The notes under the pieces were generated by a model. The model worked only from the letters and a program-made list of their open reading frames with translations, was not told the origin of the DNA and did no database searches. A stretch of 64,000 bases of DNA from a virus. Lineage: Duplodnaviria; Caudoviricetes. How positions within the stretch are numbered: position 1 is the first letter of the stretch; the number at the start of each line of letters is the position of its first letter. Shown here piece by piece: positions 30,362 through 56,666 of the stretch. Position numbers and translations under genes: made by a program. The stretch lies in the IMG/VR virus record IMGVR_UViG_3300008259_003073. One strand, 5' to 3'.

Positions 30362-31804
30362 TTAAATGAGAGTCTTATTAAAAGATAGTAAAAATTTTAA
30401 TACTAATTGCATTTCGGCATTGTTTTTTATATCTCCAAATGAAGCTTTACCATATTTTAAAAACAAACTTTGATTATAAATACATATTTCTTTTACATTG
30501 TTTAAAAACTCATCTTTTTCTTCTTTTGTTTTATTTGAAAATTTAGTAATTTCTTGCTGAATCAATCGTAGTCTAGAAAAATCATCACACTCCATATCAT
30601 AACTCTCATCAATATAAGGATGAAATGTTTTAAATCCAAATCTATTTTGTAAGTATTCTAATGATTTTGCAGGTCCTGCTAATATAAATGGTTGACAATG
30701 CCCAATTGGTTTCCATATTTTTTCTGAAAGATATCCTGTTGGGAAATTTACAAATATATCATCAACTCCTTTTGATTGGAAAAATACCGATTCGGTTACA
30801 ATGCTTACATACGAGTTTAGATAGATATTTTTATCTTCAAACCCAAACCCCGCTATTTTAGTTAAATCATTTATATCCAATACAGAAGATGTTTCTTCGA
30901 TTAATTTACCAAATTCTTCATTTCTGTCATGCACATACATTTCTTCCACTGCATTTTTTGAATAAAATCTTTTATCCCAAGATACTAAACTTTTATCCAA
31001 TCCTAATTTATGCAAATGACTCAATAATAATAATCTATGTAATTTCCAATGTCTCGACAACAATAAAAAATCTTTTTTATCTTTTCCAATACTTTCTTCA
31101 AATTCTTCACAAGTTGCAACGGTAGATATGCCAGATTTAATAGCTCCTACCTGTGGTTCGTTTGAGTTCTCACCCCAATAACGAAAATCTGGATTATTTA
31201 TTATATTATTAAATTCTTGAGATTTGGCAACCATATTTAATGCATAATCGGCTACATTGTATTTCAATCCTAGCTTTTTAAGATTATTTTTTAATTTAAA
31301 ATCTGCAAATAAAAAATAAACTTTTTCTTCAGGTATTTCTTTATCACGAATATTTTTAATTAATCTTTCAAAGTTTTCTATTGTAACACCTTCACCACCA
31401 TCTATTGTATAATGAAAAAATAATTTACCATTACCATTTTTTATTTCATCAATTGCTACTTTTGACATGAAATTTAGGGCAAATTCATGTATTGGGTGAT
31501 TTCCAAAAAATTGATTTAAATTGCCAAATGGCTCTACAATGTAAAACCAATCATAATTAATACCGTTTCTTCTATCTTCTTTTATTTGATAAATTGATTT
31601 TTTTTCAACACATCTTTCAAAATAATTACTATTGTATACTGCCCAATCACAATTCCATCTTTTAGAAAAAAAGGCACCTGAATTTGAAAAGTCAAAATCA
31701 GATGCGTTATGTATTGTATTTATATATTTTGGATTCATACAATTAGGCAATTCACCATTGTATGTTATTATATCATACCCAAATATTAATTTTTTATCGC
31801 TCAT
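30362..31804 (-). CDS. Putative glycosyltransferase (GT-B-like, TE..SEK..KP family)
   Basis: YVSIVTES...LSEKIWKPI...QPFILAG...GFKTFHPYIDESYD; paralogue of three other ORFs in the window. Confidence 0.55.
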   Translation of the reverse strand: MSDKKLIFGYDIITYNGELPNCMNPKYINTIHNASDFDFSNSGAFFSKRWNCDWAVYNSNYFERCVEKKSIYQIKEDRRNGINYDWFYIVEPFGNLNQFFGNHPIHEFALNFMSKVAIDEIKNGNGKLFFHYTIDGGEGVTIENFERLIKNIRDKEIPEEKVYFLFADFKLKNNLKKLGLKYNVADYALNMVAKSQEFNNIINNPDFRYWGENSNEPQVGAIKSGISTVATCEEFEESIGKDKKDFLLLSRHWKLHRLLLLSHLHKLGLDKSLVSWDKRFYSKNAVEEMYVHDRNEEFGKLIEETSSVLDINDLTKIAGFGFEDKNIYLNSYVSIVTESVFFQSKGVDDIFVNFPTGYLSEKIWKPIGHCQPFILAGPAKSLEYLQNRFGFKTFHPYIDESYDMECDDFSRLRLIQQEITKFSNKTKEEKDEFLNNVKEICIYNQSLFLKYGKASFGDIKNNAEMQLVLKFLLSFNKTLI

Positions 31805-31880
31805 TGATTTACATATAAATTATAACTATATTATGATTTTATATCACTTTTCTAAATATGGTGCATATAATTCCCATATC

Positions 31881-32006
31881 TTAAAATGATTTGTAAACAA
31901 ATGGGTCTCTTTTTTTAAGTTCTTCTAATTTTTTCTTAATTTTTTTCTTTGTTTGGTATGCCTGATACCATTTTACAAAGAATGAAATGATAGGTAAATT
32001 TTTCAT
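31881..32006 (-). CDS. Small basic hypothetical protein, 41 aa (not in the ORF track)
   Basis: MKNLPIISFFVKWYQAYQTKKKIKKKLEELKKRDPFVYKSF; fills the intergenic gap in operon orientation. Confidence 0.6.
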   Translation of the reverse strand: MKNLPIISFFVKWYQAYQTKKKIKKKLEELKKRDPFVYKSF

Positions 32007-32011
32007 ATTAG

Positions 32012-32554
32012 TTAGTTTTCGTAGTATAATGCAGGCCATTCAACAATAATATGAACCCCTCCTTCATTATACGCATTTGTGTATATCTTATAAATATCGT
32101 TTGGATTTTTTAATTCCCAAATTTTTGTAAATTGTAATATAGATTTGAATTCTTGTGTATAATCGTTTCTATGTTGAATGCCTGGGTCTAATGGATTGGT
32201 GCTTCCTACACCTACTCTAATTATAATATTTGCATTTTTACCAGTCATGTTTTCAAACTTATCAGCATGATTTATTAACTGATTTGCCGCAGATACTAAA
32301 AAATCCCATCGTGGATAGAATGATATAACGGTTTTTCCTGTAATTGCCAATCCTAAACTGATTCCCATTTGAGTTTCTTCCATAACAGGTAGCTCAATCA
32401 TTTTTTCTTTTGGTACTTCCGTTAAGGTTGTACTCATTGGATTTCCAGCATAAACTATTTGTTGTCCAATGAAGATTGTATCTTCTTTTTGGGCAAGAAA
32501 TGTCATTGCTTTGGATAATTCATCTTTATACGGAGATGTTTGTGGAGTACTCAT
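32012..32554 (-). CDS. TPP-dependent enzyme beta subunit (transketolase/E1-beta pyrimidine-binding domain only)
   Basis: FIGQ, ELPVMEETQMGISLGLAITG and YPRWDFL...NQLINH motifs; no C-terminal domain. Confidence 0.8.
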   Translation of the reverse strand: MSTPQTSPYKDELSKAMTFLAQKEDTIFIGQQIVYAGNPMSTTLTEVPKEKMIELPVMEETQMGISLGLAITGKTVISFYPRWDFLVSAANQLINHADKFENMTGKNANIIIRVGVGSTNPLDPGIQHRNDYTQEFKSILQFTKIWELKNPNDIYKIYTNAYNEGGVHIIVEWPALYYEN

Positions 32555-32555
32555 A

Positions 32556-33683
32556 TTATTTGTTTAAATGATTAAAATTATGACCTATGCAAATCTTATC
32601 GTTTACAAGGGTATGATTATTTATTTTATTTAGTTCTTCTAAAAATTCAGGAAACAATTCATGCTCTTCATTAAATACCTGTAATTCTTTTAATGTATCC
32701 GAATCATAGGTTCCCCAATCTACTAATTGTCTATAATTTATGTCCAAATGAAATGTTGAATCTTTAAATATATTGGTTACTAATTCATAAAACGCAAACA
32801 TTTCTTTGTAATTGTGTTTACTCACAACCATAGAAACAATAAACCATCCTATTGTATCAACAGTTGATAAAAACTTTAGATTTTTAATTAACCTATCCCA
32901 ATTACCATTTAATCTCGTTTTATTTTCATAGGTATCTTTTGTAGCAGCATCTATACTAACTTCAATTGTTTTGATGTAAGGACTTGCTTTCATTTGATTC
33001 CACAATTTTTCATCTAATAAATTACCATTTGTAATTATTTGCAATTGTTCTAAATTAGGATATTTAGATATGTCAAAATTTATTAAATAATCTCTATAAA
33101 TTTTTGAATAAAATGGGTCTCCACTACCTGTTATCATAATTCTTTTTAGATTACTCGCAAAGTTATCTTCTATAGATTTTAGTAAATGTAGTTTTGCGTT
33201 ATGTTGTGGTGATTCTAAATTATCATTTGGAATTAGAGATATTCTACAAGATGGGCATTTTAAATTGCAACTTCTATCAAACCCAAATAAAATTTCTTCT
33301 GGTGAAGTTTTAAAATTTACAATATCTTCTTCTGTGTGGATATTGTATACTTCTCTAAATTCTTCAATTTTCCTAAAAAAATATGGGGTTCTATCAGTAT
33401 TTATTAGTTCATTTAATCTTGGACATATCGTATGGTCGCAATATTTATAGCTACCGTCTAAAACGGATTTACGAATATTTTGTGCCCGTACTGATGTCCA
33501 ATTTCTCATTACATCATCGGTTTCATCTACTGGAAACCAATTTTCATTTCCATTAGAATCTACTCTGATATTGTGTGGTGCCCAAGATGGGCAACACACA
33601 AATTGAGATACAGTTTGTACATCGGAATACATAAATGGCATTTCACAAACGTATTTTTTAAGTATCTCTTTTTTATCATTCAT
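32556..33683 (-). CDS. Radical SAM protein with N-terminal Cys-rich segment
   Basis: RSCNLKCPSC (CX3CX2C); ITGSGDPF; IITNG; VSIDAA; extra N-terminal cysteines. Confidence 0.85.
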   Translation of the reverse strand: MNDKKEILKKYVCEMPFMYSDVQTVSQFVCCPSWAPHNIRVDSNGNENWFPVDETDDVMRNWTSVRAQNIRKSVLDGSYKYCDHTICPRLNELINTDRTPYFFRKIEEFREVYNIHTEEDIVNFKTSPEEILFGFDRSCNLKCPSCRISLIPNDNLESPQHNAKLHLLKSIEDNFASNLKRIMITGSGDPFYSKIYRDYLINFDISKYPNLEQLQIITNGNLLDEKLWNQMKASPYIKTIEVSIDAATKDTYENKTRLNGNWDRLIKNLKFLSTVDTIGWFIVSMVVSKHNYKEMFAFYELVTNIFKDSTFHLDINYRQLVDWGTYDSDTLKELQVFNEEHELFPEFLEELNKINNHTLVNDKICIGHNFNHLNK

Positions 33684-34675
33684 TATGGTTTCGAATTTGG
33701 ATTGTATTGATGTTTGTTTGTTTTATACCACTCAATGGTTTCTTTTAGAGCTTGTTTTAAATCTCTTTTTGGTTTCCAACCCAAATCATTAATCTTTTTA
33801 GAAGATAATAATCGAATCGGAATCATTGGTGCTTTATTATTTACATACTCAATAGGATTAGTGTTTCCATCTAATTCTTTAATTGTGGCAAGTGTTTCGT
33901 TTACTGTAAATCCTTCACCATAACATACATTGAAAATATCATATGTATCATTGTTCTCTGCAACAAAGATAAAACCATCTGCCATATCTTCAACGTGCAA
34001 CAAATCTCTCACTTCTGTTCCATCCCCCCAAACAGGAATAGGATTCAATCCATCTGCTACTTTACGGATGTTAGCAGGAGTAACGTGACACTTTTCGTAA
34101 TCAAATTTATCATTTGGTCCGAATGCATTAGATGGTCTAACAATCAAACATTGCATTGGTTCGTGAATCTGATTAGAAAAGAAATCACATAACATCTCAC
34201 CATACCGTTTCATACCACCAACTGCTTTGTAAACTGGTAACATTGGAGTTGCGTGTACATTTATATCTTCAGTACAAAATTCAGTACCCATATCTGGATA
34301 TGTTGTATTTGATGAAATAAATAAGAATTTACGAACTTTATTTTTCCAACTTTGTTCCATTAAATTCGTATTCATCTCCACATTTGGAGTGACGTGAAGT
34401 AATGGATTGAATTTGGTATCCAACGCGTTTGATGTATTTGCTGCACAATGGAATACTACATCTACATCTTTACTAACCAACTCACAAAACTCTGCAGTTT
34501 GTAAATCTCCTTTAATGTGTTCTACATTTTCAGTACCTTCGAAATCGTTTCTTAAATCTCTACTAAATGAGGTTGAGCGTAGGTTTTTGTACCCCTTTTC
34601 CCAAAGTAATCTTAATAAATGTGAACCAATAAATCCACTTGCACCTGTAACTAAAATCTTGTCTGTTTTTTTCAT
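33683..34675 (-). CDS. NAD-dependent sugar epimerase/reductase, GDP-fucose-synthase-like SDR
   Basis: TGASGFIG; RPSNAFGPNDKF...CHVTPANIRK; VWGDGTEVRDLLHVED. Confidence 0.85.
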   Translation of the reverse strand: MKKTDKILVTGASGFIGSHLLRLLWEKGYKNLRSTSFSRDLRNDFEGTENVEHIKGDLQTAEFCELVSKDVDVVFHCAANTSNALDTKFNPLLHVTPNVEMNTNLMEQSWKNKVRKFLFISSNTTYPDMGTEFCTEDINVHATPMLPVYKAVGGMKRYGEMLCDFFSNQIHEPMQCLIVRPSNAFGPNDKFDYEKCHVTPANIRKVADGLNPIPVWGDGTEVRDLLHVEDMADGFIFVAENNDTYDIFNVCYGEGFTVNETLATIKELDGNTNPIEYVNNKAPMIPIRLLSSKKINDLGWKPKRDLKQALKETIEWYKTNKHQYNPNSKP

Positions 34676-34683
34676 AACTTTTT

Positions 34684-35727: not shown

Positions 35728-36440
35728 ATATAATTTAATGTTTGTAATTTATTTGATAGAAAATTTGCCCACATTTCATGTCCTTCTTTATTAGGATGTT
35801 CATTTTCAGTTGTTTTAGTGTATCCACCAAATGTTTCTTTTAAAAAATTTGGATAATTTGATATTTCATTATCTGAAATCATGCAGTTATCCCATCCAAA
35901 AAAGTGCAAATGTTTATAACCATTTAATTCCAAATATGCATATAGTGATTTTATATAATTTTTTGTTTTATTTATTTGATATTCTGTATCTAAAAAATAT
36001 CTTATAAATCTTTGAAAATCATTATCATATAATTCTATTAATTTTTTTCTGTCTTCATCCGTTCTATTATAATCTATATTTTCATTCATTACAAATTTAG
36101 TAAAATTCCCATAAAAATTTACATCTTTTAGTATTTTATCTGCCGATGCGTGTAATGCGTTTGGTATTGTAAAATACCAGTTCTTATTATTGTGTGTTGT
36201 AATAAGTTCTGTACGAATATAATTCGTCCATTGAATTATTAATACATCTTCTTTTTTAAATTCTTCATTTAAAATATAAAATACTTTTCTAAAAACATAA
36301 TCGTTGGATGCTCCACAATTTCCAAAGTTATAACAATCTACTTTATGTTTTTCAGAAAGTAATTTTGTATAATTTTCTATTTCACAATTTTCTAACCCCT
36401 GACCTTCTGTAAACGAGCATCCAACGGAATATAATTTCAT
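35724..36440 (-). CDS. SGNH-fold protein (GCSF variant)
   Basis: VGCSFTEG; NFGNCGASNDY; IQWT; HPNKEGH. Confidence 0.7.
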   Translation of the reverse strand: MKLYSVGCSFTEGQGLENCEIENYTKLLSEKHKVDCYNFGNCGASNDYVFRKVFYILNEEFKKEDVLIIQWTNYIRTELITTHNNKNWYFTIPNALHASADKILKDVNFYGNFTKFVMNENIDYNRTDEDRKKLIELYDNDFQRFIRYFLDTEYQINKTKNYIKSLYAYLELNGYKHLHFFGWDNCMISDNEISNYPNFLKETFGGYTKTTENEHPNKEGHEMWANFLSNKLQTLNYI

Positions 36441-37438
36441 TACAATCTACTTTTGTATTCTAAAATTGATTTTGTTAAACCTTCTTTCAAAGATGTTTGT
36501 GGTAAAATTCCATATTTTTTTTGCTTATCAGCTCCTAAACATCTAATTGGGTCACCATTTGTTTTGGTTTCATCCCATACTATGTTTTTAGTTTTGCCTG
36601 TAATTTCGGTATAACACTCGACAATGGTTTCAATTGTATCTTTGATACTTACTGCTTCTGCACATCCAAAGTTGATAATATCCCTAACTTCTTTTTTAAC
36701 AACATCAATCGATGCCTGTGCAACATCATCTCCAAATACAAAATCCCTTTTAGATGAACCATTACCCCAACAAACCATATCATCACCTTCTACATTGAAT
36801 AGTTTCCAAATGTTAGATGATATTACAGTTGCATCTTGTGCAAAGTTATCGTTTGTTCCGTAGATATTTGAAGGTCTGATTACAGTCCAATTATCCCAAC
36901 CATACTGAACTCTCAATGAATCCAAAGTAAGTTCTCCCATTCTTTTTGTCCAACCTGGATGCCAATCTAAACGAGATGGAGTTGATGCCCAAGTTTCTTC
37001 CTGATTCCATGTATCTTCTTCGTTCATTATATCTGCTGGTCTATAAACCCCAACCGATGAAAGATACACAAACCAATCAACTTTGGCATCAAACGATGCT
37101 TTAATCATATTGGTGTTAAACATCAACATTGGGAATAGATAATCAGCAGGACAAGTTGATGACCTTGCTGGTGAACCTTTTACTCCTGCGATATGTAATA
37201 CAATATTAATATCATCTAACTTAAATAAATTCTCACAATGTGAAAGATATGTTAAATCGGTTTTAACCAATTCCAATCTATCTGTGTATTGTGCTTTTAA
37301 GAAGTTTAAATTTTCACTAAATTTAAGGTCTACTGCATATACTTTATCAGCTCCTTCTTCTAAACATTTTCTAACGGTTGGTAATCCTACCAACCCATTT
37401 GCTCCTGTAACCAGAACGGTTTTTCCTTTTAATTCCAT
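36440..37438 (-). CDS. NAD-dependent sugar epimerase/reductase SDR
   Basis: TGANGLVG; RPSNIYGTNDNF; WGNGSSKRDFVF. Confidence 0.85.
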   Translation of the reverse strand: MELKGKTVLVTGANGLVGLPTVRKCLEEGADKVYAVDLKFSENLNFLKAQYTDRLELVKTDLTYLSHCENLFKLDDINIVLHIAGVKGSPARSSTCPADYLFPMLMFNTNMIKASFDAKVDWFVYLSSVGVYRPADIMNEEDTWNQEETWASTPSRLDWHPGWTKRMGELTLDSLRVQYGWDNWTVIRPSNIYGTNDNFAQDATVISSNIWKLFNVEGDDMVCWGNGSSKRDFVFGDDVAQASIDVVKKEVRDIINFGCAEAVSIKDTIETIVECYTEITGKTKNIVWDETKTNGDPIRCLGADKQKKYGILPQTSLKEGLTKSILEYKSRL

Positions 37439-37445
37439 TTTATTT

Positions 37446-38876
37446 TTATTTTGTTGTGTAATCTATTTTTATTTTTTCAAATATTTCATCAAAACACTCA
37501 TAGTTTTCAAATGAGTATATATGCTTTTGGTTATATAATAATATATCAATTATTGAATAATACCAATTATGTAATTCCTCAATTGGCATGTTTTTTAGTT
37601 TAATTAATTCTTTTTCTAAAAGTAACATTCGCTTTTTAGGGTCTTTTTCTAAATCATAACTTTCATCTATAAATGGTTCAAAGGTTTTAAACCCTAATCT
37701 CCGTAATTCTGCTAATGTTAAATAATCCCCAAATACTAAAAATGGTTGTAAATTTGATATTGGTTTAAATATTTTTTCTGAAAGGAATACGTTTGGTCCA
37801 AAGAATGTTTCGGTTACTAAATGAAAATATGAATTTGCGTACCATTCTTTTTTATTATTTCTAACTCCAAATGCTCTTTTTTTATCAGATGGCAATTCCT
37901 TTGTATCATCTTCATAAGGTAATAATTTCTCTAATTCAGATGTATATTTTTCAACATTTTCCTCCGTATCCTCATATACTTTATTTACAATATTTTTTAA
38001 TATATTTTTTTCTAATTTTTCAATAAATGTAAATAATCCATCTTTTAATAAATCGTATTTTAGTGCAAAATATCCCAACATAGTTCTTTGTGGTTTATTC
38101 ATTGTTCTATTTGGGGATAAAAATTTATGTTTTCTAATTTTAGTGGAATCTAAATCTTTTTCTTCAAGTAACTCACACAAATATCCCAAATTACCAATCA
38201 TTGGAAATGAATTTATTTCATCGGCATATCCTCTTATAAATAAATGCCCATTATATATTTTTATTTTACTATCAGGATATATTTCATAGTATTCCGAAAA
38301 TTTACTTCCTCCTAAAATTATGATATTAGAAGCATCTACTCCTAATTCATTTAATTGGATTTCAAATTGTTGTATATTGTGTGAATCATATAAAGGGTCA
38401 TGTATCATATTTACTAATATTTTTACTTTGCCCGATTTAATTAAATCAAATAATTCAGGTTCTATAATGTCTTTTAAAAACCAAGTATATTCTGTATCAT
38501 TTAACAAAAAACTGTTTTTATTATGTAGTGCAGAAAGTGTATCTTTTATTTCTAATGGATATACATAAATGAAATCATCATCTTTAATTTGATTAAATGA
38601 TATTATATTTTTAGGAAAATTTCTAGAAAAATAATTAAACAATTCCGAATGGTCGAATTTTATACCCTTTTGTTCTGATTTATATTGTAGTATTTCATAC
38701 CAATCTATTTTTAAATTGTTTTTTAAAACATATTGAATAAATTTAGTAATAACAGGATGCATTCCATTACCAAATGGCTTGAGTTGACCGTGGTCAATAT
38801 ACCAATCGGTATATATCATTTTAAAATTTGAACCATGTATTGCATTCATATTAATATCTGTATATTTTTTTAACAT
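37446..38876 (-). CDS. Putative glycosyltransferase (GT-B-like, TE..SEK..KP family)
   Basis: FHLVTET...LSEKIFKPI...QPFLVFG...GFKTFEPFIDESYD. Confidence 0.55.
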   Translation of the reverse strand: MLKKYTDINMNAIHGSNFKMIYTDWYIDHGQLKPFGNGMHPVITKFIQYVLKNNLKIDWYEILQYKSEQKGIKFDHSELFNYFSRNFPKNIISFNQIKDDDFIYVYPLEIKDTLSALHNKNSFLLNDTEYTWFLKDIIEPELFDLIKSGKVKILVNMIHDPLYDSHNIQQFEIQLNELGVDASNIIILGGSKFSEYYEIYPDSKIKIYNGHLFIRGYADEINSFPMIGNLGYLCELLEEKDLDSTKIRKHKFLSPNRTMNKPQRTMLGYFALKYDLLKDGLFTFIEKLEKNILKNIVNKVYEDTEENVEKYTSELEKLLPYEDDTKELPSDKKRAFGVRNNKKEWYANSYFHLVTETFFGPNVFLSEKIFKPISNLQPFLVFGDYLTLAELRRLGFKTFEPFIDESYDLEKDPKKRMLLLEKELIKLKNMPIEELHNWYYSIIDILLYNQKHIYSFENYECFDEIFEKIKIDYTTK

Positions 38877-39810
38877 TATTTCCTACATAATTGTTATCGT
38901 GAAAGAAACTTTCAAATAACAATTCATTTTTTATATAATCTTTAGTACACATTAAATTAAAAATATTATCTGAAATTTCTGGTGATAGATTATAATTTAT
39001 ATTAGCATTCAGCATATCATTTACGAAATTTTTAATTCCATCTACTATTTTTATTTTATCACTAAAGTATTTTTGATTTTCTGTATCGTTTTCGTTTATA
39101 AACTCACCATTAACAATATCGATATATGTTCCAACTTTATCGGTAAATACTGATTCAAAGAATATGATATTGTTTTTAAAATTACATTTTTCAAAATCAT
39201 AAAAACCTTTTGTATTTTTCAAATCTATATTTCCTTTATAGGTCATATACCTGCCTTTCAAATCCAAATCAAATGTTTTTTGTAAATAATATTGAGTAGT
39301 ACCTTGATAACCACTATCTACCATATATACATTTTTACATTCTCCAATCGTATTATTAATATATTTTCTATACGAATCTCTTAATACCTTTGATTTACCC
39401 AATATATCTGGAGCACATAAATTTAAATTTGGTAATCTATTTGAAGTATCAATTTGAATATCATTTTCAATAATGTAATTTATTTGAAATCTATCTTTAA
39501 GTAATTCGGATAAATTACCTTGGTATCTATGTAAATTAAATGATTCATAAACATCATATTCAGATACAAACGAAGATAGTGATGCCAATTTTCTTGATGT
39601 TTTAAAATAAACTGAATTTGGTAAATTATATTTTATTTTAAAATCTTGATATAATTGATTAAGAAAATATCCTTCTCGTGAGTTAAATAAAATCAAATCA
39701 CCGTCTTTTACTTCATCTTTTAACCAATTAAAATAATTAAATACTAATGGTCCAAAAAAGATATAACCAAGTTCTTCCAATGATTCTGGATTTTTAACAA
39801 TGTGGTCCAT
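38851..39810 (-). CDS. Glycan-cluster protein resembling the C-terminal part of HAD-family hydrolases
   Basis: FGPLVFNY, FNSREGYFL, YFKTSR and VDSGYQGTTQ motifs seen in polysaccharide-cluster HAD fusion proteins. Confidence 0.5.
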   Translation of the reverse strand: MDHIVKNPESLEELGYIFFGPLVFNYFNWLKDEVKDGDLILFNSREGYFLNQLYQDFKIKYNLPNSVYFKTSRKLASLSSFVSEYDVYESFNLHRYQGNLSELLKDRFQINYIIENDIQIDTSNRLPNLNLCAPDILGKSKVLRDSYRKYINNTIGECKNVYMVDSGYQGTTQYYLQKTFDLDLKGRYMTYKGNIDLKNTKGFYDFEKCNFKNNIIFFESVFTDKVGTYIDIVNGEFINENDTENQKYFSDKIKIVDGIKNFVNDMLNANINYNLSPEISDNIFNLMCTKDYIKNELLFESFFHDNNYVGNNVKKIYRY

Positions 39811-41437: not shown

Positions 41438-41440
41438 ATA

Positions 41441-42603: not shown

Positions 42604-42604
42604 A

Positions 42605-43570: not shown

Positions 43571-43574
43571 AATT

Positions 43575-45748: not shown

Positions 45749-45752
45749 ATTT

Positions 45753-47219
45753 TTATTTTAAACAATGAACATTTATTAATTTGTGTTTATCAAAAATGAT
45801 TTTAGTACTGATATGTTTATACTTCATATTATTTATACCATCTTTTTTATAATCAATTTTACCTTGCTGCATTTCTAATACATATCTTCTTTCGTTTCTT
45901 GCAGTGGTTTCACCTTTAGCCCATTTTTCAATACCACCTTCTTTAATTAAACCTTCAGTTTCATGTGGTAAACAGAAAAATTTACCATCTCTTCTATGTG
46001 GTAGTATTACATGGGGTATTTGTATTTCTCTTTCTTCAATACCAACATTATACAATACACCATCGTTTAATTCGGCCTGGTCTATTACAAATTTATCATC
46101 AACTATTTCATCAAAGTTATAGTGTAATACCAAACTATCGGTTGAATACTGCTTATGTAATAAATTAACTTCTTCACCAGTTAACGCTCTATCCCACATT
46201 TTAATATCAGCTATTTCACCTTTAAAAAATGCGTTTGGTTCAAATGGTTCAACCGTTGTCGTATGCCCTACATAAAATGGTTCATTTCCATATCGTTTTA
46301 AGTTATACTGATATTCAAACGGTGATTGCGTACCCGTTCCATTTCTAGCATCACTTTCATTTCCATTTAGATAAAAATGCATTTTCTTTTCCAAATCATC
46401 AATTACCATCGTAACCCACGTCCATTCTCCCTCATACCTTTTAAACCATTGGTAGATATGTTCTCTATGAGCATTCCATAACATACCAGTATATGCCCTA
46501 CTATTGTTAAATGATAATCCCCAATCATAACCTGGTTTTCTGAATATAGGATATTCTACGAATTTTCTGTTTGAATCACCAATTAACCAAATAGGGACTT
46601 TTTCTATTTGTTGGTCTGCCTTTACTAATACAGAAATTGTATGTGAATTGGATATTGCTATTCTATTTTTTTCAGAAGATGGTATTTTGATGTATGAACT
46701 TTTACCATCAAATACTGCTACATTTTTTACTTTAGCGAAATCAATAGTTTGTTTATTAACATATCCTTCCATCACACATCTCCAAAACAAATCATCATCT
46801 TCCATGCCCCAATCCCAATAATCATTTGAATAACCATTGGTTGCTAAAACTTGCTCTTTTGTAAAAACAACCGCACCACCAAAGTATTCCTGATATTTTA
46901 ATTGGTAATCCGATTGTGAGATACGAACTGCAATGTGTTGTGGATTTTCCATAGGATATGAATAATCACAACTATCATCTTCGGGTACCATATCAATATC
47001 ATGCCAAACTATGTAATCACATCCATCATCAATTGCATGTTTTGCAGCAATGTTTTTCATCAATCCTCTATTGAATAGATATTCATCACACTGATGTGCA
47101 ATATAAATGGTGTGGTCAATTCCTTTCTTTGTTAAGAAATTAGTAACCCAAGGAACAAATTGATTCATATGTTCCTCTCTGTTTCTATATGGTACGCAGA
47201 CCCCTAACTTATGCCCCAT
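45753..47219 (-). CDS. GT7 (beta-1,4-galactosyltransferase-like) glycosyltransferase with inserted LamG domain
   Basis: VPYRNR, FNRG..KN, HDID, YFGG, NGYSNDYWDWGMEDDD; LamG insert; C-terminal H...N..R...DGINNMKY. Confidence 0.85.
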   Translation of the reverse strand: MGHKLGVCVPYRNREEHMNQFVPWVTNFLTKKGIDHTIYIAHQCDEYLFNRGLMKNIAAKHAIDDGCDYIVWHDIDMVPEDDSCDYSYPMENPQHIAVRISQSDYQLKYQEYFGGAVVFTKEQVLATNGYSNDYWDWGMEDDDLFWRCVMEGYVNKQTIDFAKVKNVAVFDGKSSYIKIPSSEKNRIAISNSHTISVLVKADQQIEKVPIWLIGDSNRKFVEYPIFRKPGYDWGLSFNNSRAYTGMLWNAHREHIYQWFKRYEGEWTWVTMVIDDLEKKMHFYLNGNESDARNGTGTQSPFEYQYNLKRYGNEPFYVGHTTTVEPFEPNAFFKGEIADIKMWDRALTGEEVNLLHKQYSTDSLVLHYNFDEIVDDKFVIDQAELNDGVLYNVGIEEREIQIPHVILPHRRDGKFFCLPHETEGLIKEGGIEKWAKGETTARNERRYVLEMQQGKIDYKKDGINNMKYKHISTKIIFDKHKLINVHCLK

Positions 47220-47220
47220 T

Positions 47221-48651
47221 TTACAATAATACTGATAGATGATGATAGTTATTCATTGATACATCATTTAATACCTGATATAAACAATTGTTTAAACCAT
47301 CCTTATCTGTGTTATATAATTTAGTTTTAATTTGATTTAAAAATCTTAATTGGTTTATACGAGTTTCTCTATGAACCCAGTTTTTCTCATTCCAACTATT
47401 TGTTTTATGAGATAATAATTTAAATAAAGATTTTCTTCTATACGGAACCGTCATTTCTCTACCTAATGATTCATGTGATTTTATGAAATGGCAATTATTA
47501 ATTTCACCATTATTACCGTTAAAAGATAAATCTAATAGAGTATTTTCTTTGTAGAATTTAAAATCATAATATAATTTTAAATGTTCCGCCGATTTATACG
47601 CTCTAAAATTTTCTAATAAAGAATTTTCCAAAACATTATCTGCTAATATAGAAATTTCTTTATCTTTCAATTTACAATCGTATATTGCAAATTCAGAAAT
47701 CATTCCATAAAAAAAGTTTGGGTTAGAATCCCTTTCAGGTGAACCAACGCCTAAATAAAAGTATTCTTCATCTGAATAATCCTTTGGAGCATTCTTTAGT
47801 TTTTCTGTACCTACTAATTCACCATCTTTATAAAAAGAAATTTCATTTTTTTTATAATCAAAAGTTAAACAAATTTGAGTAAAATGATTAGTTAGTATTT
47901 CTGAATTAATAGAAGTGCAATCATCGGTATCATCCCAAAAATCTACTTTATATCTTCTAAAAGAATTATAACTTATATTCGTATCGTATCCAGGTATTGA
48001 AAATACAGTATATTCATCATAATCATTATTTGGATTTGATATTATTTCATCAGGTTTAAATGTAATTATTATTGATGTATCTTTTTCAAAATCTAATAAG
48101 TCTTTCTTTAGTATCCTGATGTAAGAATCATTTCCACTAAAAGATAACCCATATAATTTTTTGGTTTCATTTTTACCAATAATTTTTGAATCCAATGGAA
48201 TGCTCTTTTGATTAACCCTAAATAAAAGGTCATCATCTTCAAACCCCCATCCCCAATATAAATTAGAATATCCATTTACTCTTTCAAATGTATCAGAACT
48301 AAACATAGTTACACCTCCAAAATAATCATCAAATGATAAGTTTTTGGATTTATCATATTCTAATTCAAAATTGGTTGCAAGGTGCATGGGTAATTCAGAA
48401 TAAGAATAATCAACCTCAATTGGTAGCATATCCACATCGTGAAATACAATATATCCACATCCTAATTCTTTTGCTTTGATATACCCAATATTTAATAACT
48501 TCCCTCTATTAAACGGTTTATCATCGGTCTGTTCAACTACGATAATCTCGTGTTTAATTTTTTTGGATTTTAAATATGAAGACATAGTTTCACCGAATCG
48601 TGCTAAATGCGATTCTCTATCTCTGTATGGTACAATTATTCCTAACTTCAT
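47221..48651 (-). CDS. GT7 glycosyltransferase with inserted LamG domain
   Basis: VPYRDR, FNRGKLLNIG, HDVD, YFGG, NGYSNLYWGWGFEDDD; LamG insert; DGLNN.LY. Confidence 0.85.
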   Translation of the reverse strand: MKLGIIVPYRDRESHLARFGETMSSYLKSKKIKHEIIVVEQTDDKPFNRGKLLNIGYIKAKELGCGYIVFHDVDMLPIEVDYSYSELPMHLATNFELEYDKSKNLSFDDYFGGVTMFSSDTFERVNGYSNLYWGWGFEDDDLLFRVNQKSIPLDSKIIGKNETKKLYGLSFSGNDSYIRILKKDLLDFEKDTSIIITFKPDEIISNPNNDYDEYTVFSIPGYDTNISYNSFRRYKVDFWDDTDDCTSINSEILTNHFTQICLTFDYKKNEISFYKDGELVGTEKLKNAPKDYSDEEYFYLGVGSPERDSNPNFFYGMISEFAIYDCKLKDKEISILADNVLENSLLENFRAYKSAEHLKLYYDFKFYKENTLLDLSFNGNNGEINNCHFIKSHESLGREMTVPYRRKSLFKLLSHKTNSWNEKNWVHRETRINQLRFLNQIKTKLYNTDKDGLNNCLYQVLNDVSMNNYHHLSVLL

Positions 48652-48656
48652 TTAGA

Positions 48657-48998: not shown

Positions 48999-49004
48999 TT
49001 ATTT

Positions 49005-50462
49005 TTATATTTTAATTTGATGCTTATAAACTCCTGTTTTAATTTCTTCTGTTGATACTAAATCATATGATAATGTATTTAATCCAAATTTATCAGTATC
49101 TAATATATCAGTTGCAATTTCATAAAAGAAAATACCTTCATTTTCTTCAAAAATATCATCTTTTACTTTCCAACTATAATTTTGTAATTTAGTGAATTTT
49201 TTTGAATTTTCCAAGATTTGAAACCGTCCATTTGATTGTTCTGGCATATCAAATTCATAAGACAGGTTTAATTGTTCAGAATACAATTCCTGATGTAACC
49301 CAGTTGATACTATTCTTGGATTTGAAAATGTTTTAGAATCATCTACATAAAAATCTCCAAACTTTTTATCAAATGGTACATTTATAACTGCTTCAAAATT
49401 TGTAGTTATTGTATCATTTATTGTTTTATACCCATCGGTGTATAGTTTTAATATTTCGGATTCTGCCAATGGGTAATCGAATAATAATAGGTTAGATATT
49501 TTGCCATTAAATGAATTTTTAAATGCCAAACTACCAATCCACAAATCTTTTCCTTTAAAGTCCATTAAATAATTTGGTAATCCATCCAGTGCTTGTACAA
49601 GTTTGCCATCAATGTATAGACCGGCTTTTTTCTTATCCATATCAACCTTTAATGACAGGTTTATCCATTGATTGACATGTGCTTTGTGTGAATACCACAT
49701 TTGATGTAAACTCTTATTATCATCCCACAATTGAACTACAATTGCATCGTTTTTCATAATAAAAATTCCCATATCATAACCTTGTTTCCCAATAATACAC
49801 GCATCGTTTGATTGATTATCGTTAATGAAAACATTCATTGATATTGTAAATGAATCTTCAAAAATATAATCGGTTGTTTTGCTTGCTCTTATAAACACAC
49901 AATTATTTTCATTTGAATCAAAAGGATATATTGTTTTTTTAATATATTTATTTACCTCTTTTACATCTGTTAAAACATGCGGTTTATATATATTTTTAGT
50001 AAAAAATCTCTTTGCAGATAATAATTTGTGTTTTTTTAATCTATATAAGAAATCTATCCAATGAAAAGAACCTCCCCAATAATCGTTACTGAACCCGTTT
50101 GCTTCGAAGAAATTTTCTTTTGTAATTTTAAAAGCTCCGCCTATCCAATGAGGATACGGTTTTAAATTTGCGGCTAAATGTGTTGGGTAGTATTCAAAAT
50201 CATAATTACACGATTCTTGTCTTGGTAGAATATCAATATCGTGGAATATATAATAATCGGAACGATTTTGTGTTATATCCGCACCAATATTACACAGTTT
50301 TCCATAATTAAAATAAACATCCGCATCTATTTGTTCGATGAAATGTATTTCGTAATCTATTTTATCTTTTAAAAAGTATTCCATGTGACCCACAAAGGTA
50401 TACAGGTCTTGTAAACGATTGGAGTACGGTACTATAATTGATAACTTTTTACTATTCGCCAT
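49005..50462 (-). CDS. Degenerate GT7-LamG paralogue
   Basis: VPY, FNYG..CNIG and HDID retained; WGxEDDD replaced by YWGGSFHWID; same LamG insert; FGLN.LSY. Confidence 0.75.
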   Translation of the reverse strand: MANSKKLSIIVPYSNRLQDLYTFVGHMEYFLKDKIDYEIHFIEQIDADVYFNYGKLCNIGADITQNRSDYYIFHDIDILPRQESCNYDFEYYPTHLAANLKPYPHWIGGAFKITKENFFEANGFSNDYWGGSFHWIDFLYRLKKHKLLSAKRFFTKNIYKPHVLTDVKEVNKYIKKTIYPFDSNENNCVFIRASKTTDYIFEDSFTISMNVFINDNQSNDACIIGKQGYDMGIFIMKNDAIVVQLWDDNKSLHQMWYSHKAHVNQWINLSLKVDMDKKKAGLYIDGKLVQALDGLPNYLMDFKGKDLWIGSLAFKNSFNGKISNLLLFDYPLAESEILKLYTDGYKTINDTITTNFEAVINVPFDKKFGDFYVDDSKTFSNPRIVSTGLHQELYSEQLNLSYEFDMPEQSNGRFQILENSKKFTKLQNYSWKVKDDIFEENEGIFFYEIATDILDTDKFGLNTLSYDLVSTEEIKTGVYKHQIKI

Positions 50463-50476
50463 CTTAATAACCTATT

Positions 50477-51325
50477 TTATATAGATATAATTTTTTTAAA
50501 TAATTGTTTCCATTTTGAGTATCCTGAATAATGATAAGTTGGTGATAATTCGAATCCAAATCTCACATCATCCAATGGTAATTTAAATCTAAATTTTGCC
50601 AATTCTCTATACATTTTTCGATATTCTTCTGAATATGAGTAATCTTTATTTATGTTTGCAACTGCTCTAATTCTTTCTCCACAAGTACTATCCCATTTAA
50701 AATGATGTACTTGCACACTGCATTTGTTAATTGGTGCAATCAGTGGATGATTCCAACCTTGCCATTTCCAAGTAGTATGTCCGTCTATTTTTGCATAATG
50801 CTGTCCGTTTGTAATTTCAACATACCCCTTTGCTATACAAATTTTATTAGGATTAGCACCACTTAACGGAAATCTAAAAAATCCTGCGTATGGAAACTTT
50901 TCAAATATGTCATCCGTATCTAATAATTCAACAAATTCACCATCCTCTCCAATTCTATCTATAAATCCACCTCTTACCATTTCCCATCCATTTACATCAC
51001 AATTTGATGTGATACTTCGTAATGAATCCGAATAGACATGGAACTCATCATCATCGGATATTACCCACCAATCGTTTGGATGAGTTGATTTTACTTCATT
51101 GTAAAGTCTTGTTACCTTTTCCCAATTATACTTCTCTTCAATTACCGTTTTTACAATTTTAGCATTTGGAAATTGAGATACTATGGTTTTAACTTCTGAT
51201 AAATTAGATTGCTCTTCCCAATCATATACAACAATATACATTTCATCCACTTTATCTTTGTAGTGGTTTAACATATGTTTTAATGTTGTTGTTCTAGAAC
51301 CTGTTACCGTAACTAATCTAATCAT
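50477..51325 (-). CDS. GT2-like (GT-A fold) glycosyltransferase
   Basis: LKHMLNHY...VDEMYIVVYD; WWVISDDDEF; HHFKW. Confidence 0.7.
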   Translation of the reverse strand: MIRLVTVTGSRTTTLKHMLNHYKDKVDEMYIVVYDWEEQSNLSEVKTIVSQFPNAKIVKTVIEEKYNWEKVTRLYNEVKSTHPNDWWVISDDDEFHVYSDSLRSITSNCDVNGWEMVRGGFIDRIGEDGEFVELLDTDDIFEKFPYAGFFRFPLSGANPNKICIAKGYVEITNGQHYAKIDGHTTWKWQGWNHPLIAPINKCSVQVHHFKWDSTCGERIRAVANINKDYSYSEEYRKMYRELAKFRFKLPLDDVRFGFELSPTYHYSGYSKWKQLFKKIISI

Positions 51326-52080
51326 TTTCTTTTAACTAATGTTAATCCAGTTGATGATGGTTTATTTTTTACTATTCCAAAATTGAATAAATCAAATGTT
51401 TCCCACTTTGGATTATCTTTAAGTTCTTTAGCAAATGTAATTGGTCCATGCCAATCATCAAAATCACCTCTATCTTTTACTTCGTTTGTAACAATGTAAC
51501 TATCTGCATAATTAGGGTCCGTATCGTGGATAGAAATGATACCATTTGGAGAAAGTAACTGCGAATATAGTTCAAAATCCTCTTTTACATTCTCATAACT
51601 ATGACCAGCATCTATATGTAAATAATCTATCTGAATATCATTAAGAATAAAGTAATTATGAAAAGCGTCTTCTGTTGTTTTATTAATAATTCGTGGATGA
51701 AATGTTCTTCTGAAAAATGATTCTTCTCTAAACCAATTTACATGTCCACCAATACCGTTCATAGCATCAACAACATAAGTAACACCAATATCTCCCCAAT
51801 TTAAATCAGAATTTCCTTCAAAAATGCCTTGTTTATGTAAATCGTAACGAGCCTGTGTCATTAATCTAGGTACAAATCCTCCACCTGAACCTAAACATAC
51901 ACAAGTTTTTGCTCTCATATACTGAATAAGAGAATAGATTATTAAACCATCTCCTAAATGATTATCAGTTGCTCCATGTGACCATCTATACGGAACTGGA
52001 ACTTCTTCTTGCTCCTGATATTCGTTATATTCTAAATTGTTTGTTAGATAATTCTTTAAGTATTGTAAATCTTGTAGCAT
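51322..52080 (-). CDS. Class I SAM-dependent methyltransferase
   Basis: CLGSGGG; IDYLHIDAGHSYENVKEDF...L.PNGIISIHD. Confidence 0.85.
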   Translation of the reverse strand: MLQDLQYLKNYLTNNLEYNEYQEQEEVPVPYRWSHGATDNHLGDGLIIYSLIQYMRAKTCVCLGSGGGFVPRLMTQARYDLHKQGIFEGNSDLNWGDIGVTYVVDAMNGIGGHVNWFREESFFRRTFHPRIINKTTEDAFHNYFILNDIQIDYLHIDAGHSYENVKEDFELYSQLLSPNGIISIHDTDPNYADSYIVTNEVKDRGDFDDWHGPITFAKELKDNPKWETFDLFNFGIVKNKPSSTGLTLVKRK

Positions 52081-52142
52081 TAGATTAGTTGATAAAGTAA
52101 AGTGAATACAATATACTAAAAAAAATCTAAATTTACAACACT

Positions 52143-55301: not shown

Positions 55302-55336
55302 ATATAACCACTAATCAATAACTTTTTAATTTCAGA

Positions 55337-55513
55337 TTATTCTGCAGATTCTACGGGAATTAAAATGTATTTGTGAGTATCACCACATTCGTTTGGTTCA
55401 TCAAAAATTTCTTGATGTTCGGCAATCCATTCCATTGCTTGCTCATTAGTTAATGATTCACAACCTTCAATGGGTGTATCTGTTCCTGATAATACTATTT
55501 TCCAAAGTTCCAT
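55337..55513 (-). CDS. Small acidic hypothetical protein, 58 aa (not in the ORF track)
   Basis: MELWKIVLSGTDTPIEGCESLTNEQAMEWIAEHQEIFDEPNECGDTHKYILIPVESAE; preceded by the promoter-like motif. Confidence 0.6.
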   Translation of the reverse strand: MELWKIVLSGTDTPIEGCESLTNEQAMEWIAEHQEIFDEPNECGDTHKYILIPVESAE

Positions 55514-55532
55514 AATTGTTAGTTTTATTTAG

Positions 55533-55541
55533 TATAAATAT
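55533..55541 (-). promoter_or_regulatory. ATATTTATA promoter-like motif
   Basis: Exact motif 19 nt upstream of the ATG at 55513. Confidence 0.6.
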
Positions 55542-55565
55542 AATATTTTTTTGATAAAAGTGATA

Positions 55566-56666
55566 TTAGTTCAACAGTTTCTTAAAAGTGGTTTCCATTT
55601 CCGAATAATCATTTAGGTATTCTATCAACTTATATCTATTTTCTATAGATTTTTCTAAAGAATGATTATATCTTTCTTCTATTTCATCATCTGATGTATT
55701 ATATAACCATTCTGAAAACAGATTTATACTTCTTTCCACATCTTGGGCATTTGTTATATTTTGTACAAAATCAAAATTTAATAAATAAAATCCCATATTT
55801 TTAAGTTCATTTAATGTTTCACTACATGCTACTAAAATTATCGGTTTTCCAAAAAATAAACCCTTATATATTTTTTCTGTAATAAATCTTTCTGGATTAT
55901 TTCTATAATCCAATGTCTCAAATATTAAATTATAATTACAATATACATAATCATTTATTGCTTCGAAATGTTTGTACTTTGGATATAACAAATCATACGC
56001 ATCGTTTGCAGAATCTTTTGGATTTAACATTTTTTCAATTAAAGGATTATTATTAAGAATATCCATTCTCCAGCTACCAGTACGATGTGCTCTTATATAT
56101 GAAAATAACTTTGATTTAGATTTATCATATTTAGGTAATGATATATTATTTACCAATTCTTCTAAATAATAATATCCAATATAGTATCTGAAATATCTAA
56201 ATGGAAATAACAAATCAAAATAAAAATTAGATTCCGTTTCCAGTATTGGTCTTTTTGACCCCGAAAGGATTAAATCATAATTAATTTCCTGTACTCTTTT
56301 TACAAATGCAATATCAAATACTTCACCATAATGCCATATAAATACTTTTTTTATGTTTATATGATTGGTGTTTAACTCAAATAGTTTATCCTCTAATAAT
56401 TTATTTTCTAATTCTCCTGCAAATACTATACATCTATTAAATTTTTTAAAAAATTCAATTGGTTCTTTTATAAAATTACTTAAATTGTTGTAAAAATATA
56501 TTTTACTGTTTAGTTCTTTATGATAGTATATTTGCTTTTCAGAATTATCAAATTTTGTTGCATCAAATTCAGATAAATAATCTACATTTTCTTTACCGAA
56601 CATACCAAGCATTATTGGTAATTGGTTTGAATAAGTTATAAAAACCATTAGATTTTCCTCTATCAT
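55566..56666 (-). CDS. Putative glycosyltransferase (GT-B-like, ET..TEK family)
   Basis: YNLIFET...FITEKIYKGLFFGKPIIL...LKNMGF. Confidence 0.5.
   Translation of the reverse strand: MIEENLMVFITYSNQLPIMLGMFGKENVDYLSEFDATKFDNSEKQIYYHKELNSKIYFYNNLSNFIKEPIEFFKKFNRCIVFAGELENKLLEDKLFELNTNHINIKKVFIWHYGEVFDIAFVKRVQEINYDLILSGSKRPILETESNFYFDLLFPFRYFRYYIGYYYLEELVNNISLPKYDKSKSKLFSYIRAHRTGSWRMDILNNNPLIEKMLNPKDSANDAYDLLYPKYKHFEAINDYVYCNYNLIFETLDYRNNPERFITEKIYKGLFFGKPIILVACSETLNELKNMGFYLLNFDFVQNITNAQDVERSINLFSEWLYNTSDDEIEERYNHSLEKSIENRYKLIEYLNDYSEMETTFKKLLN

Follow-up and report, generated by a model that had tools for sequence, protein, structure and literature searches.

Giant viruses such as chloroviruses and mimiviruses glycosylate their own virions. 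Among bacteriophages, virion glycosylation is reported for mycobacteriophages in the passage of PMC12619734 that cites Freeman 2023, and fibre-adjacent glycan islands have already been described at annotation level in pelagimyophages and cyanomyophages as host-recognition-cluster (HRC) or 'lipopolysaccharide (LPS) gene' islands (HTVC008M group, P-SSM2, S-SCSM1, S-SCSM2R; PMC7029224, PMC12801897). The three-step heptose logic of Campylobacter, with Cj1427/MlghA, Cj1430/MlghB and Cj1428/MlghC, is a further described system (PMC10680097, PMC7949155). Here, a gene block running from 56666 to 30362 on the minus strand was analysed in a window of 64,000 nucleotides (the whole stretch of DNA considered) from IMG/VR virus record IMGVR_UViG_3300008259_003073 (Duplodnaviria; Caudoviricetes). 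At the level of its enzymology the block is very probably a self-contained cytoplasmic glycan assembly line, and the phage's own virion proteins are tentatively proposed as the acceptor.

Like the HRC islands, the block belongs to a T4-like aquatic myophage, forms a large island in the structural region beside the tail-fibre genes, and holds many glycosyltransferases (GT), nucleotide-sugar epimerases, radical S-adenosylmethionine (SAM) proteins and heptose-related genes, with variable content. HRC islands have GT8 and rfaE, whereas a Cj1427-type GDP-heptose pathway, an E1-like thiamine pyrophosphate (TPP) enzyme pair, twitch-type radical SAM proteins and GT7 enzymes with a LamG domain (GT7-LamG) were found here. 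HRC content is hypervariable, whereas the island here has a strongly conserved core, and the major capsid protein is only ~33% identical to that of Melnitz-type phages, against 54% to the counterparts of Flavobacterium phage immuto and Microcystis phage Mel-JY01. With chloroviruses, mimiviruses and mycobacteriophages Che8, Corndog and Myrna (Freeman et al. 2023) the island shares virus-encoded, predicted soluble transferases and sugar-nucleotide enzymes with no membrane export. As in the mycobacteriophages, the glycosyltransferase genes lie near structural genes (here between the fibre and the terminase and head genes), but those phages have one to four transferases and the present island has nine in 26 kb; C-terminal Ser/Thr acceptor tails of the mycobacteriophage type were not found on the phage capsid protein. 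The 'moraphage' (PMC12619734), tried as a related system, belongs to a different lineage. What is new is the conserved set of this clade, namely heptose pathway, TPP pair, twitch radical SAM proteins and GT7-LamG, together with the whole-genome evidence against export and DNA routes.

The window corresponds to bases 99568-163567 of one 201,940-bp viral contig with 32% G+C and a CheckV completeness of 100%, in which 204 of 208 open reading frames (ORFs) are on the minus strand. The virus is a T4-like myophage, a jumbo phage, with recognisable terminase, portal and gp23-type major capsid genes. Near-identical DNA was present in lake and freshwater metagenomes of at least eight studies; two metatranscriptome runs contained only 0.15 and 0.05 of the sampled words and were uninformative on expression. 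Families were assigned by Pfam, NCBIfam and PDB sequence searches, and two proteins were folded with AlphaFold on alignments made from relatives.

Donor sugar synthesis and the TPP enzyme pair

A C4 dehydrogenase, an RmlC-fold C3/C5 epimerase and Fcl-like C4 reductases are encoded in the island, as in the capsular GDP-heptose pathway of Campylobacter jejuni, from which the phage dehydrogenase and epimerase also draw their best sequence matches. The dehydrogenase, a short-chain dehydrogenase/reductase (SDR, 42605), showed a median identity of 82% across phage relatives and more than 7998 close metagenomic homologues. Its PDB matches, 6VO6 and 6VO8, are presumably Cj1427, with which the depositor's title agrees. 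For the epimerase (42067), the top eight PDB matches were of the MlghB/DdahB/Cj1430 type (E 2e-38 to 1e-36), the 7AN* codes being DdahB and MlghB (PMC7949155), while true RmlC came at 3e-23 or weaker. The 'RmlC' of an earlier note on this DNA was therefore right as to the fold, whereas the enzyme itself is closer to the heptose epimerases. The SDR at 33683 matched 7ANH (MlghC or DdahC; E 2.2e-27) in third place, after a top match to an SDR without name. Judged from these matches, the sugar core fits the Campylobacter GDP-heptose (Mlgh) pathway, and the predicted donor chemistry is GDP-heptose-like rather than dTDP-rhamnose-like.

Supply genes of the GmhA and HddA type, also a feature of the Campylobacter pathway, were found elsewhere in the phage genome. 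The HddA-like heptose-7-phosphate kinase matched NF049969 over its full length (E 9e-99, below the curated cut-off) and the GmhA-like SIS isomerase matched TIGR00441 (E 2e-16), while none of the HAD phosphatases of the genome matched the GmhB model. The Campylobacter pathway has HddC and capsule export, but the phage has neither a recognised HddC nor capsule export. Conversely, the Campylobacter loci are without the TPP E1-like pair and the radical SAM proteins which the phage combines with the pathway.

In the phage, a stretch of 9 kb with inserted accessory genes separates the TPP alpha gene from the beta gene. The alpha subunit was clearly recognised; the beta subunit gave a weak Transket_pyr match (E 2.4e-5, 24.5 bits against a cut-off of 27) and an NCBIfam match to NF006667 (E 1.5e-8). 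When a TPP-alpha profile was searched against one genome per prokaryotic species, cellular homologues of 47-62% identity were revealed in SAR11, Candidate Phyla Radiation (CPR) bacteria, archaea, Omnitrophota and others, the closest being mostly Pelagibacterales. In these cellular loci the beta gene directly follows the alpha gene, among HddA-, GmhA-, Cj1427-, RmlC- and Fcl-like genes, so the TPP pair functionally belongs with the heptose genes. In Pelagibacter HIMB1412 these genes are accompanied by an ABC exporter, by GT2 genes and by further TPP enzymes and a GMD-like SDR; this locus serves a cell-surface glycan. The association of the TPP pair with heptose loci across cellular life is new.

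The three nearest TPP-alpha matches (70-79%) comprised two island-syntenic contigs and one of only 3 kb (L147). The two syntenic contigs (L146, VHCC01000006.1; L148, NZWA01000006.1) were deposited within metagenome-assembled genomes of Pelagibacterales and Flavobacteriales. The first carries the whole phage island in synteny and the second a large part of it (GT7-LamG, twitch radical SAM, epimerase and TPP alpha); both are most likely phage contigs binned into bacterial genomes.

In the proposed route, the GmhA-like and HddA-like enzymes and a HAD phosphatase would feed the heptose supply, and the guanylyltransferase would come from the host or be present in the phage but unrecognised. The Cj1427/MlghA-like SDR would then oxidise C4, the RmlC-fold MlghB-like enzyme would epimerise C3 and C5, and the Fcl/MlghC-like reductases would set C4, giving one or more GDP-heptose epimers. 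From the company that it keeps in cellular genomes, we infer that the minimal E1-like TPP pair probably acts on the 4-keto intermediate by adding or moving a two-carbon unit, and the twitch-type radical SAM proteins would tailor the sugar further. AviB1/AviB2 of avilamycin synthesis are reportedly two-carbon branched-chain sugar enzymes with E1 alpha/beta-like subunits. By description, the likeness lies in a pair of pyruvate dehydrogenase E1-like alpha and beta subunits within the pathway of a deoxysugar or keto-sugar, in which a hydroxyethyl-TPP unit could pass to a 4-keto-sugar; the phage subunits differ in being minimal (209 and 180 aa), without the E1-beta C-terminal domain.

Glycosyltransferases, tailoring genes and layout of the block

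Nine glycosyltransferases were counted in the block: three GT7-LamG proteins, one GT-A, one GT4-like GT-B and four paralogous GT-B proteins (Table 1). This is the number given in the earlier note, with the reservation that three of the five GT-B proteins were recognised by motif or BLAST and one GT7 protein (49005) has no EDDD; the other two GT-B proteins (54318, 37446) are supported by fold. In VIA comparisons, the model of the GT4-like protein 54318 was nearest to sucrose-phosphate synthase (Z 20.9) and HepE (20.6), then PimA, BshA and WaaG. T4 AGT did not stand out as its specific relative, ranking tenth (Z 18.1) among generic GT-B matches. For the 476-aa protein 37446, T4 BGT, Helicobacter pylori alpha-1,3-FucT and EXT1 were tied at Z 9.9, and the FucT structures (9.9, 9.4 for FUT9, 9.2) were level with other GT-B enzymes; Foldseek gave SdgB and OtsA at E 1e-5, and the nearest named Atlas cluster scored 0.80 only. 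The 'GT10-like' proteins had no Pfam Glyco_transf_10 match, and their (S/T)EK motif was seen by eye only. Paralogue 30362 is 37% identical to 37446 by BLAST across the C-terminal 171 aa.

The GT7 proteins at 45753 and 47221 show all the CAZy GT7 features (DxD, FGG, WGxEDDD, DG(L/I)N, Pfam 7N and 7C), and 47221 matched Glyco_transf_7N (E 1.2e-19), 7C (E 4.1e-17) and Laminin_G_3 (E 2e-13). An inserted LamG domain of ~200 aa separates EDDD from the His/DGLN segments, an arrangement atypical of the GT7 family. The third paralogue (49005) is probably inactive or altered, since the WGxEDDD catalytic motif is missing. The oligosaccharide would be built by the GT4-like GT-B, the GT-A and the two active GT7 enzymes of beta-1,4 type with their lectin-like insert; up to four divergent GT-B enzymes would join in, with GDP-sugars as possible donors.

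Decoration of the chain would be carried out by the SAM-dependent methyltransferase, and acyl groups would probably be edited by the SGNH-like enzymes. The three SDRs, the TPP pair (beta weakly), the three radical SAM proteins and the methyltransferase named in the earlier note were all borne out by family or PDB matches. Its three SGNH proteins fared less well: GCSFT replaces GDS(x) in all three ORFs, one NEHP..GH resembles block V and one ORF has a weak DUF6071 match, but no Pfam match was significant. As for the HAD-type proteins, 39810 stood as HAD_PNKP, and 38851 is HAD-like on its DSGxQGT motif only, with no Pfam, NCBIfam or PDB-profile match. The twitch radical SAM protein 44333 had no match in PDB by phmmer; a 40%-identical protein is encoded in Ralstonia phage RsoM2USA, which was rejected as an island carrier, with the other island genes not nearby. 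The radical SAM protein 32556 is absent from the four complete relatives (G001-G004). For ten island ORFs, Pfam searches at E up to 5 gave no credible family, only chance-level matches (E 0.0014-0.1); NCBIfam gave nothing for six of these ten, and alignments A1-A3, used as profiles against PDB sequences, yielded no useful match. A C-terminal K/R..L[ILVM] tag was discarded as an island property, being carried by only 2 of 26 island ORFs.

Further glycan-related genes occur outside the window. At G000:C1:28341-41075, ~58-71 kb before the window, a second island contains an SGNH (GDS) protein, the HddA-like kinase, an APS kinase, a HAD phosphatase, a 2-oxoglutarate (2OG) oxygenase, an FkbM methyltransferase, several GT-A/GT2 proteins, an SDR and a GT-B (Glyco_trans_1_2), which suggests sulfated and methylated sugars. 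In addition, a NodU/CmcH-type carbamoyltransferase (G000:C1:185443-187140, E 3e-66) and a cluster of a radical SAM protein with two P4H-type 2OG oxygenases (G000:C1:193806-196966) may supply extra decorations.

The block contains 26 ORFs of at least 80 aa, and its only two gaps (264 bp and 207 bp) are filled by mini-ORFs, giving 28 genes; most junctions overlap or are shorter than 15 bp. Both the ~28 tightly coupled genes and the position between tail fibre and head genes, as first noticed, were thus confirmed: from high to low coordinates the order is 2OG oxygenase, S74 tail fibre, block, 1731-aa polyprotein, two small genes and terminase, with portal and major capsid genes beyond. G+C is 23-26% in accessory cassettes (window 38001-40000 and 52001-56000), against 29-31% in the block core and up to 38% in the head genes, which would fit a recent exchange of cassettes. 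A 57-aa ORF (window 62737-62910), one of the very few genes on the plus strand, lies immediately before the fibre gene in a gap of 273 bp; it may be a small regulator of the fibre and island operon. Between the two, a minus-strand TATAAATA motif begins at window position 62687, at a distance of 54 nt upstream of the start of the fibre gene. As a T4-type late promoter and timing signal, TATAAATA was rejected, only two of its 13 genome copies lying within 60 nt of a start codon.

Table 1. Features of the block and its flanks, from high to low window coordinates
Feature	Position (strand)	Evidence	Occurrence or remark
P4H-type 2OG oxygenase	62907-63620		upstream of tail fibre gene
Tail fibre, 1746 aa	57393..62633 (-)	C-terminal S74 intramolecular chaperone, Peptidase_S74 E 3.7e-16	upstream anchor of block
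Ser/Thr/Gly-rich protein, 242 aa	56663..57391 (-)	no Pfam match	closest relatives only, 4/61 loci
Putative GT-B, 'GT10-like' paralogue, 366 aa	55566..56666 (-)	ITEK..GKP motif by eye; no Pfam match	accessory, 4/61 loci
Mini-ORF, 58 aa	55337..55513 (-)		in 264-bp gap
GT-B, GT4-like, 327 aa	54318..55301 (-)	AlphaFold pLDDT 80	first conserved island gene after fibre; 61/61 loci
Putative GT-B, 'GT10-like' paralogue, 440 aa	53027..54349 (-)	FTEK..KP motif; no Pfam match	accessory, 12/61 loci
SGNH-like protein, 295 aa	52143..53030 (-)	N-terminal GCSFT; BLAST link to 35724-36440; no Pfam match	accessory
Class I SAM methyltransferase	51322..52080 (-)	Methyltransf_24 E 2.9e-12	core, 61/61 loci
GT-A, GT2-like	50477..51325 (-)	SDDDEF motif; Glyco_tranf_2_4 E 2.2e-4, below cut-off	core, 61/61 loci
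GT7-LamG paralogue 3	49005..50462 (-)	Pfam; DxD kept, WGxEDDD lost (alignment A6)
Small conserved protein, 113 aa	48657..48998 (-)	Ser-rich, Pro/Arg-rich tail; no Pfam match	between GT7-LamG paralogues; 76/80 loci
GT7-LamG paralogue 2, beta-1,4-galactosyltransferase-like	47221..48651 (-)	LamG inserted; motifs intact
GT7-LamG paralogue 1	45753..47219 (-)	Pfam GT7N, GT7C and LamG; motifs intact
Twitch-domain radical SAM	44333..45748 (-)	NF033640 N_Twi_rSAM E 2.9e-105, full length	core, 66/66 loci
Stand-alone LamG-like protein, 259 aa	43575..44354 (-)	BLAST similarity to LamG part of 47221-48651; no Pfam match
SDR, C4-dehydrogenase-like (MlghA/Cj1427-like)	42605..43570 (-)	PDB 6VO6/6VO8 E 2.7e-105, residues 2-308
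RmlC-fold C3/C5 epimerase (MlghB/DdahB/Cj1430-like)	42067..42603 (-)	PDB 7AN4, 7ANG, 7ANI, 8DCL, 8DCO, 7M14
TPP enzyme, E1-alpha-like (PP domain), 209 aa	41441..42070 (-)	E1_dh E 1e-14; TIGR03182 E 1.1e-24
Radical SAM	40238..41437 (-)	Radical_SAM E 3.7e-15	accessory trio with 39810 and 38851; 15/66 loci
HAD phosphatase, PNKP type	39810..40241 (-)	HAD_PNKP E 2.4e-17	accessory trio; 15/66 loci
319-aa protein	38851..39810 (-)	invariant DSGxQGT motif (alignment A3), HAD-like by eye	accessory trio
Divergent GT-B, 'GT10-like', 476 aa	37446..38876 (-)	AlphaFold pLDDT 89
SDR, GDP-fucose-synthase-like C4 reductase	36440..37438 (-)	NF047922 E 6e-34; PDB Fcl E 8e-18
SGNH-like protein, 238 aa	35724..36440 (-)	GCSFT ... 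NEHPNKEGH by eye; no Pfam match
SGNH-like protein, 347 aa	34684..35727 (-)	GCSFT motif; weak DUF6071 E 1.4e-3, below cut-off
SDR, C4 reductase/epimerase (MlghC/DdahC-, Fcl-like)	33683..34675 (-)	NF047922 E 7e-42	core, 4/4 complete relatives
Radical SAM	32556..33683 (-)	Radical_SAM E 2e-9; N_Twi_rSAM E 2.3e-13	accessory, nearest relatives only
TPP enzyme, E1-beta-like (PYR domain), 180 aa	32012..32554 (-)	partner of 41441-42070	4/4 complete relatives
Mini-ORF, 52 aa, basic	31881..32039 (-)		in 207-bp gap
GT-B, 'GT10-like' paralogue, 480 aa	30362..31804 (-)	aligned with 37446 (A5)	last island gene
Nucleotidyltransferase-metalloprotease polyprotein, 1731 aa	25152-30347		downstream of block
Terminase	22175-23782	PHROGs
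Portal	19837-21579	PHROGs
gp23-type major capsid protein	10277-11890	PHROGs

Variability of the cluster among relatives, which the earlier note had put forward as a check, was followed in 80 fetched loci (GT7-LamG has 199 relatives in IMG/VR, and presence counts refer to 61 or 66 loci) and in the four complete relatives (237-287 kb, TerL 65-91% identical); a conserved core with swappable inserts was revealed. The core order is fibre, GT4-like, methyltransferase, GT-A, two or three GT7-LamG and twitch radical SAM, then Cj1427-like SDR, epimerase, TPP alpha, GT-B, two SDRs and TPP beta. The trio of radical SAM, HAD and 319-aa proteins, the SGNH-like genes, the extra GT-B genes and radical SAM 32556 are accessory cassettes. 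Conservation of the fibre N-terminus was seen in 49 IMG/VR loci; 25 loci extend far enough to be judged, and in every one of them the island comes directly after the fibre gene. In the four complete relatives it again sits in this slot, at 20-27 kb upstream of the terminase. Among 50,697 phage records, megablast with 20 kb of the island gave no match and tblastn with a GT7-LamG protein no homologue. In the Atlas, every GT7+LamG cluster and the nearest clusters of the GT4-like protein and the 476-aa GT-B were 100% viral.

Acceptor of the glycan

The lack of flippase, polymerase and exporter genes, first noticed in the window, extends to the complete genome, in which no initiating phosphoglycosyl transferase, flippase or ABC exporter, polymerase or ligase was found. 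Apart from Rossmann N-termini, nothing resembling a transmembrane segment is encoded in the island, and across the complete genome there is a single polytopic membrane ORF, with no match to Bac_transf. With soluble enzymes and no export or lipid-carrier machinery genome-wide, the proposal of cytoplasmic synthesis stood. The sole polytopic membrane protein (G000:C1:190215-191297, 360 aa, ~five hydrophobic segments) has a weak CysZ/EI24 sulfate-transporter match (E 0.004), and may go with the APS kinase and sulfotransferase-like genes.

If the new sugars and transferases were instead to alter the LPS, capsule or glycoprotein layer of the infected cell, the host's carrier lipid, flippase or ABC exporter would be used, and superinfection or adsorption of progeny to lysing cells would be blocked. 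Many O-antigen glycosyltransferases are soluble peripheral proteins, as would suit such host-surface remodelling. The heptose/TPP cassette is homologous to cellular surface-glycan loci, and published accounts of pelagimyophages and cyanomyophages assign a remodelling role to their fibre-adjacent islands, which are rich in glycosyltransferase, radical SAM and LPS-type genes (PMC7029224, PMC12801897). Yet the export genes are lacking from a complete genome, and the homologous cellular locus of Pelagibacter HIMB1412 has an ABC exporter where the phage has none. Nine transferases with their own donors and decorations resemble de novo synthesis rather than a tweak. The transferases are phage-only lineages, so a phage-specific acceptor fits better than the O-antigen intermediate of a host strain. 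Moreover, the same island core occurs in phages whose distal fibre parts differ widely, and which therefore probably use different host receptors. On balance, host-surface remodelling is considered unlikely, while deserving serious weight.

Attachment of the glycan, or part of it, to a modified base of phage DNA would evade restriction, and T4 glucosyl-hmC and arabinosyl-hydroxycytosine are precedents for DNA glycosylation. Phage gene clusters which heptosylate 5hmC exist, some of them metaviromic (bioRxiv 10.1101/2023.12.21.572611), T4 AGT (Z 18.1) and BGT (Z 9.9, joint top) stand among the neighbours of the two folded GT-B proteins, and among the Atlas clusters neighbouring the GT4-like protein one bears an AGT-family annotation; AGT and BGT were, however, not set apart from generic GT-B matches. 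The described routes of DNA O-glycosylation begin with a thymidylate-synthase-fold hydroxymethylase or hydroxylase, or with a C5-methyltransferase and TET (PMC13326640; bioRxiv 10.1101/2023.12.21.572611), but no such gene was matched in the 100% complete genome. Specifically, Thymidylat_synt (PF00303) and DNA_methylase (PF00145) gave no match with working controls, Tet_JBP (PF12851) gave no match with a silent control, and the three 2OG oxygenases scored in a full Pfam scan only as 2OG-FeII_Oxy_3/4, that is, P4H-type and not TET. The absence of base-modifying enzymes reported at first thus holds genome-wide, with the silent PF12851 control. GT7-LamG, the methyltransferase, the SGNH-like proteins and nine transferases go far beyond any known DNA glycan, and the island lies among late structural genes and not among replication genes. 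DNA hypermodification is accordingly very improbable.

A non-virion phage protein, a lipid or a small molecule could also accept the glycan in the cytoplasm, by analogy with serine-rich adhesins, which are glycosylated there before export. The genome encodes a 469-aa protein (G000:C1:5810-7219) with a tract of ~40 residues that is 70% Ser, a possible O-glycosylation substrate that might be exported. The protein Ser-O-glycosyltransferases SdgB, GtfA and Gtf3 occur among the GT-B structural neighbours, and the conserved 113-aa Ser-tailed protein (48657-48998) lies inside the island itself. The poly-Ser gene is, however, ~94 kb from the island, and the structural matches are generic to GT-B, so that such another acceptor is improbable.

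Virion proteins, most plausibly the fibres, would in the preferred reading be glycosylated in the cytoplasm before lysis. In its favour are the solubility of the enzymes, strict synteny with the fibre, transferases of phage-only lineages, and the precedents of giant viruses and mycobacteriophages. The fibre at 57393 (25% Ser+Thr, with a short collagen-like run) is a candidate acceptor. In a scan of all 208 ORFs, only the fibres were globally Ser/Thr-rich among structural proteins, the tail tube not being separately identified. The fibres thus agree in overall composition with the earlier expectation of Ser/Thr-rich virion acceptors, though not through any low-complexity tail. Of the methylated or acylated, possibly branched glycan once proposed, methylation is to be expected, acyl editing is probable, and branching or extension is plausible owing to the TPP pair.

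Several points weigh against this picture. Even a soluble glycosyltransferase can work at the membrane, on lipid-linked intermediates of the host, and the sugar cassette derives from cellular surface-glycan loci. Comparable islands have been read as modification of the host O-chain (PMC7029224). The scan of the 208 ORFs revealed no structural protein with a low-complexity Ser/Thr tail, and the capsid protein was not flagged. The collagen-like run of the fibre is not conserved among island-bearing relatives, and neither the run nor the neighbouring 2OG oxygenase tracks the island. The 2OG oxygenase with this run, tried as a hydroxylation/glycosylation pair in the style of mimivirus L230, showed no association among relatives (run/oxygenase counts 6/5/16/6, the six double positives being near-identical copies). 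Between its tail spike and terminase, Flavobacterium phage immuto carries unrelated accessory genes in this slot, so the position of the island may by itself mark a plastic region only. On the side of the donor, neither a sugar-1-phosphate nucleotidyltransferase (NTP_transferase) nor an HddC guanylyltransferase was found in the genome. Two relatives that carry the island but are more distant (G003, G004) lack the HddA-like gene; hence the substrate could be a GDP-hexose and not a heptose.

Taken at its most specific, the preferred reading would have an abundant clade of freshwater jumbo phages coating their virions, probably the long fibres, with a self-made methylated oligosaccharide that contains a heptose-derived sugar extended or branched by the TPP and radical SAM enzymes, the GT7-LamG proteins acting as protein- or glycan-directed transferases by analogy with lectin-bearing ppGalNAc-transferases. 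This full picture is possible but doubtful. To our knowledge, no such extended or branched heptose-derived monosaccharide has been described from any virus.

Implications for freshwater phages

The phage is easy to find, as it occurs in freshwater metagenomes of at least eight studies and its SDR has thousands of close metagenomic homologues. Whichever acceptor is used, the island ties a Campylobacter-type GDP-heptose pathway to the E1-like TPP pair of SAR11, CPR and archaeal surface-glycan loci, and this link points to an undescribed higher-carbon or branched sugar. If the host surface is the target, the island would be among the most elaborate cases of a lytic phage rewriting the surface sugars of its host. 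If the glycan is placed on the virion, common lake phages would possess a self-encoded sugar coat as complex as those which, to date, only giant eukaryotic viruses are known to have, and it would be the bacteriophage counterpart of their glycocalyx. Such a coat would matter for adsorption, for resistance to grazing and enzymes, and for the way in which hosts and sinking organic matter see the particles.

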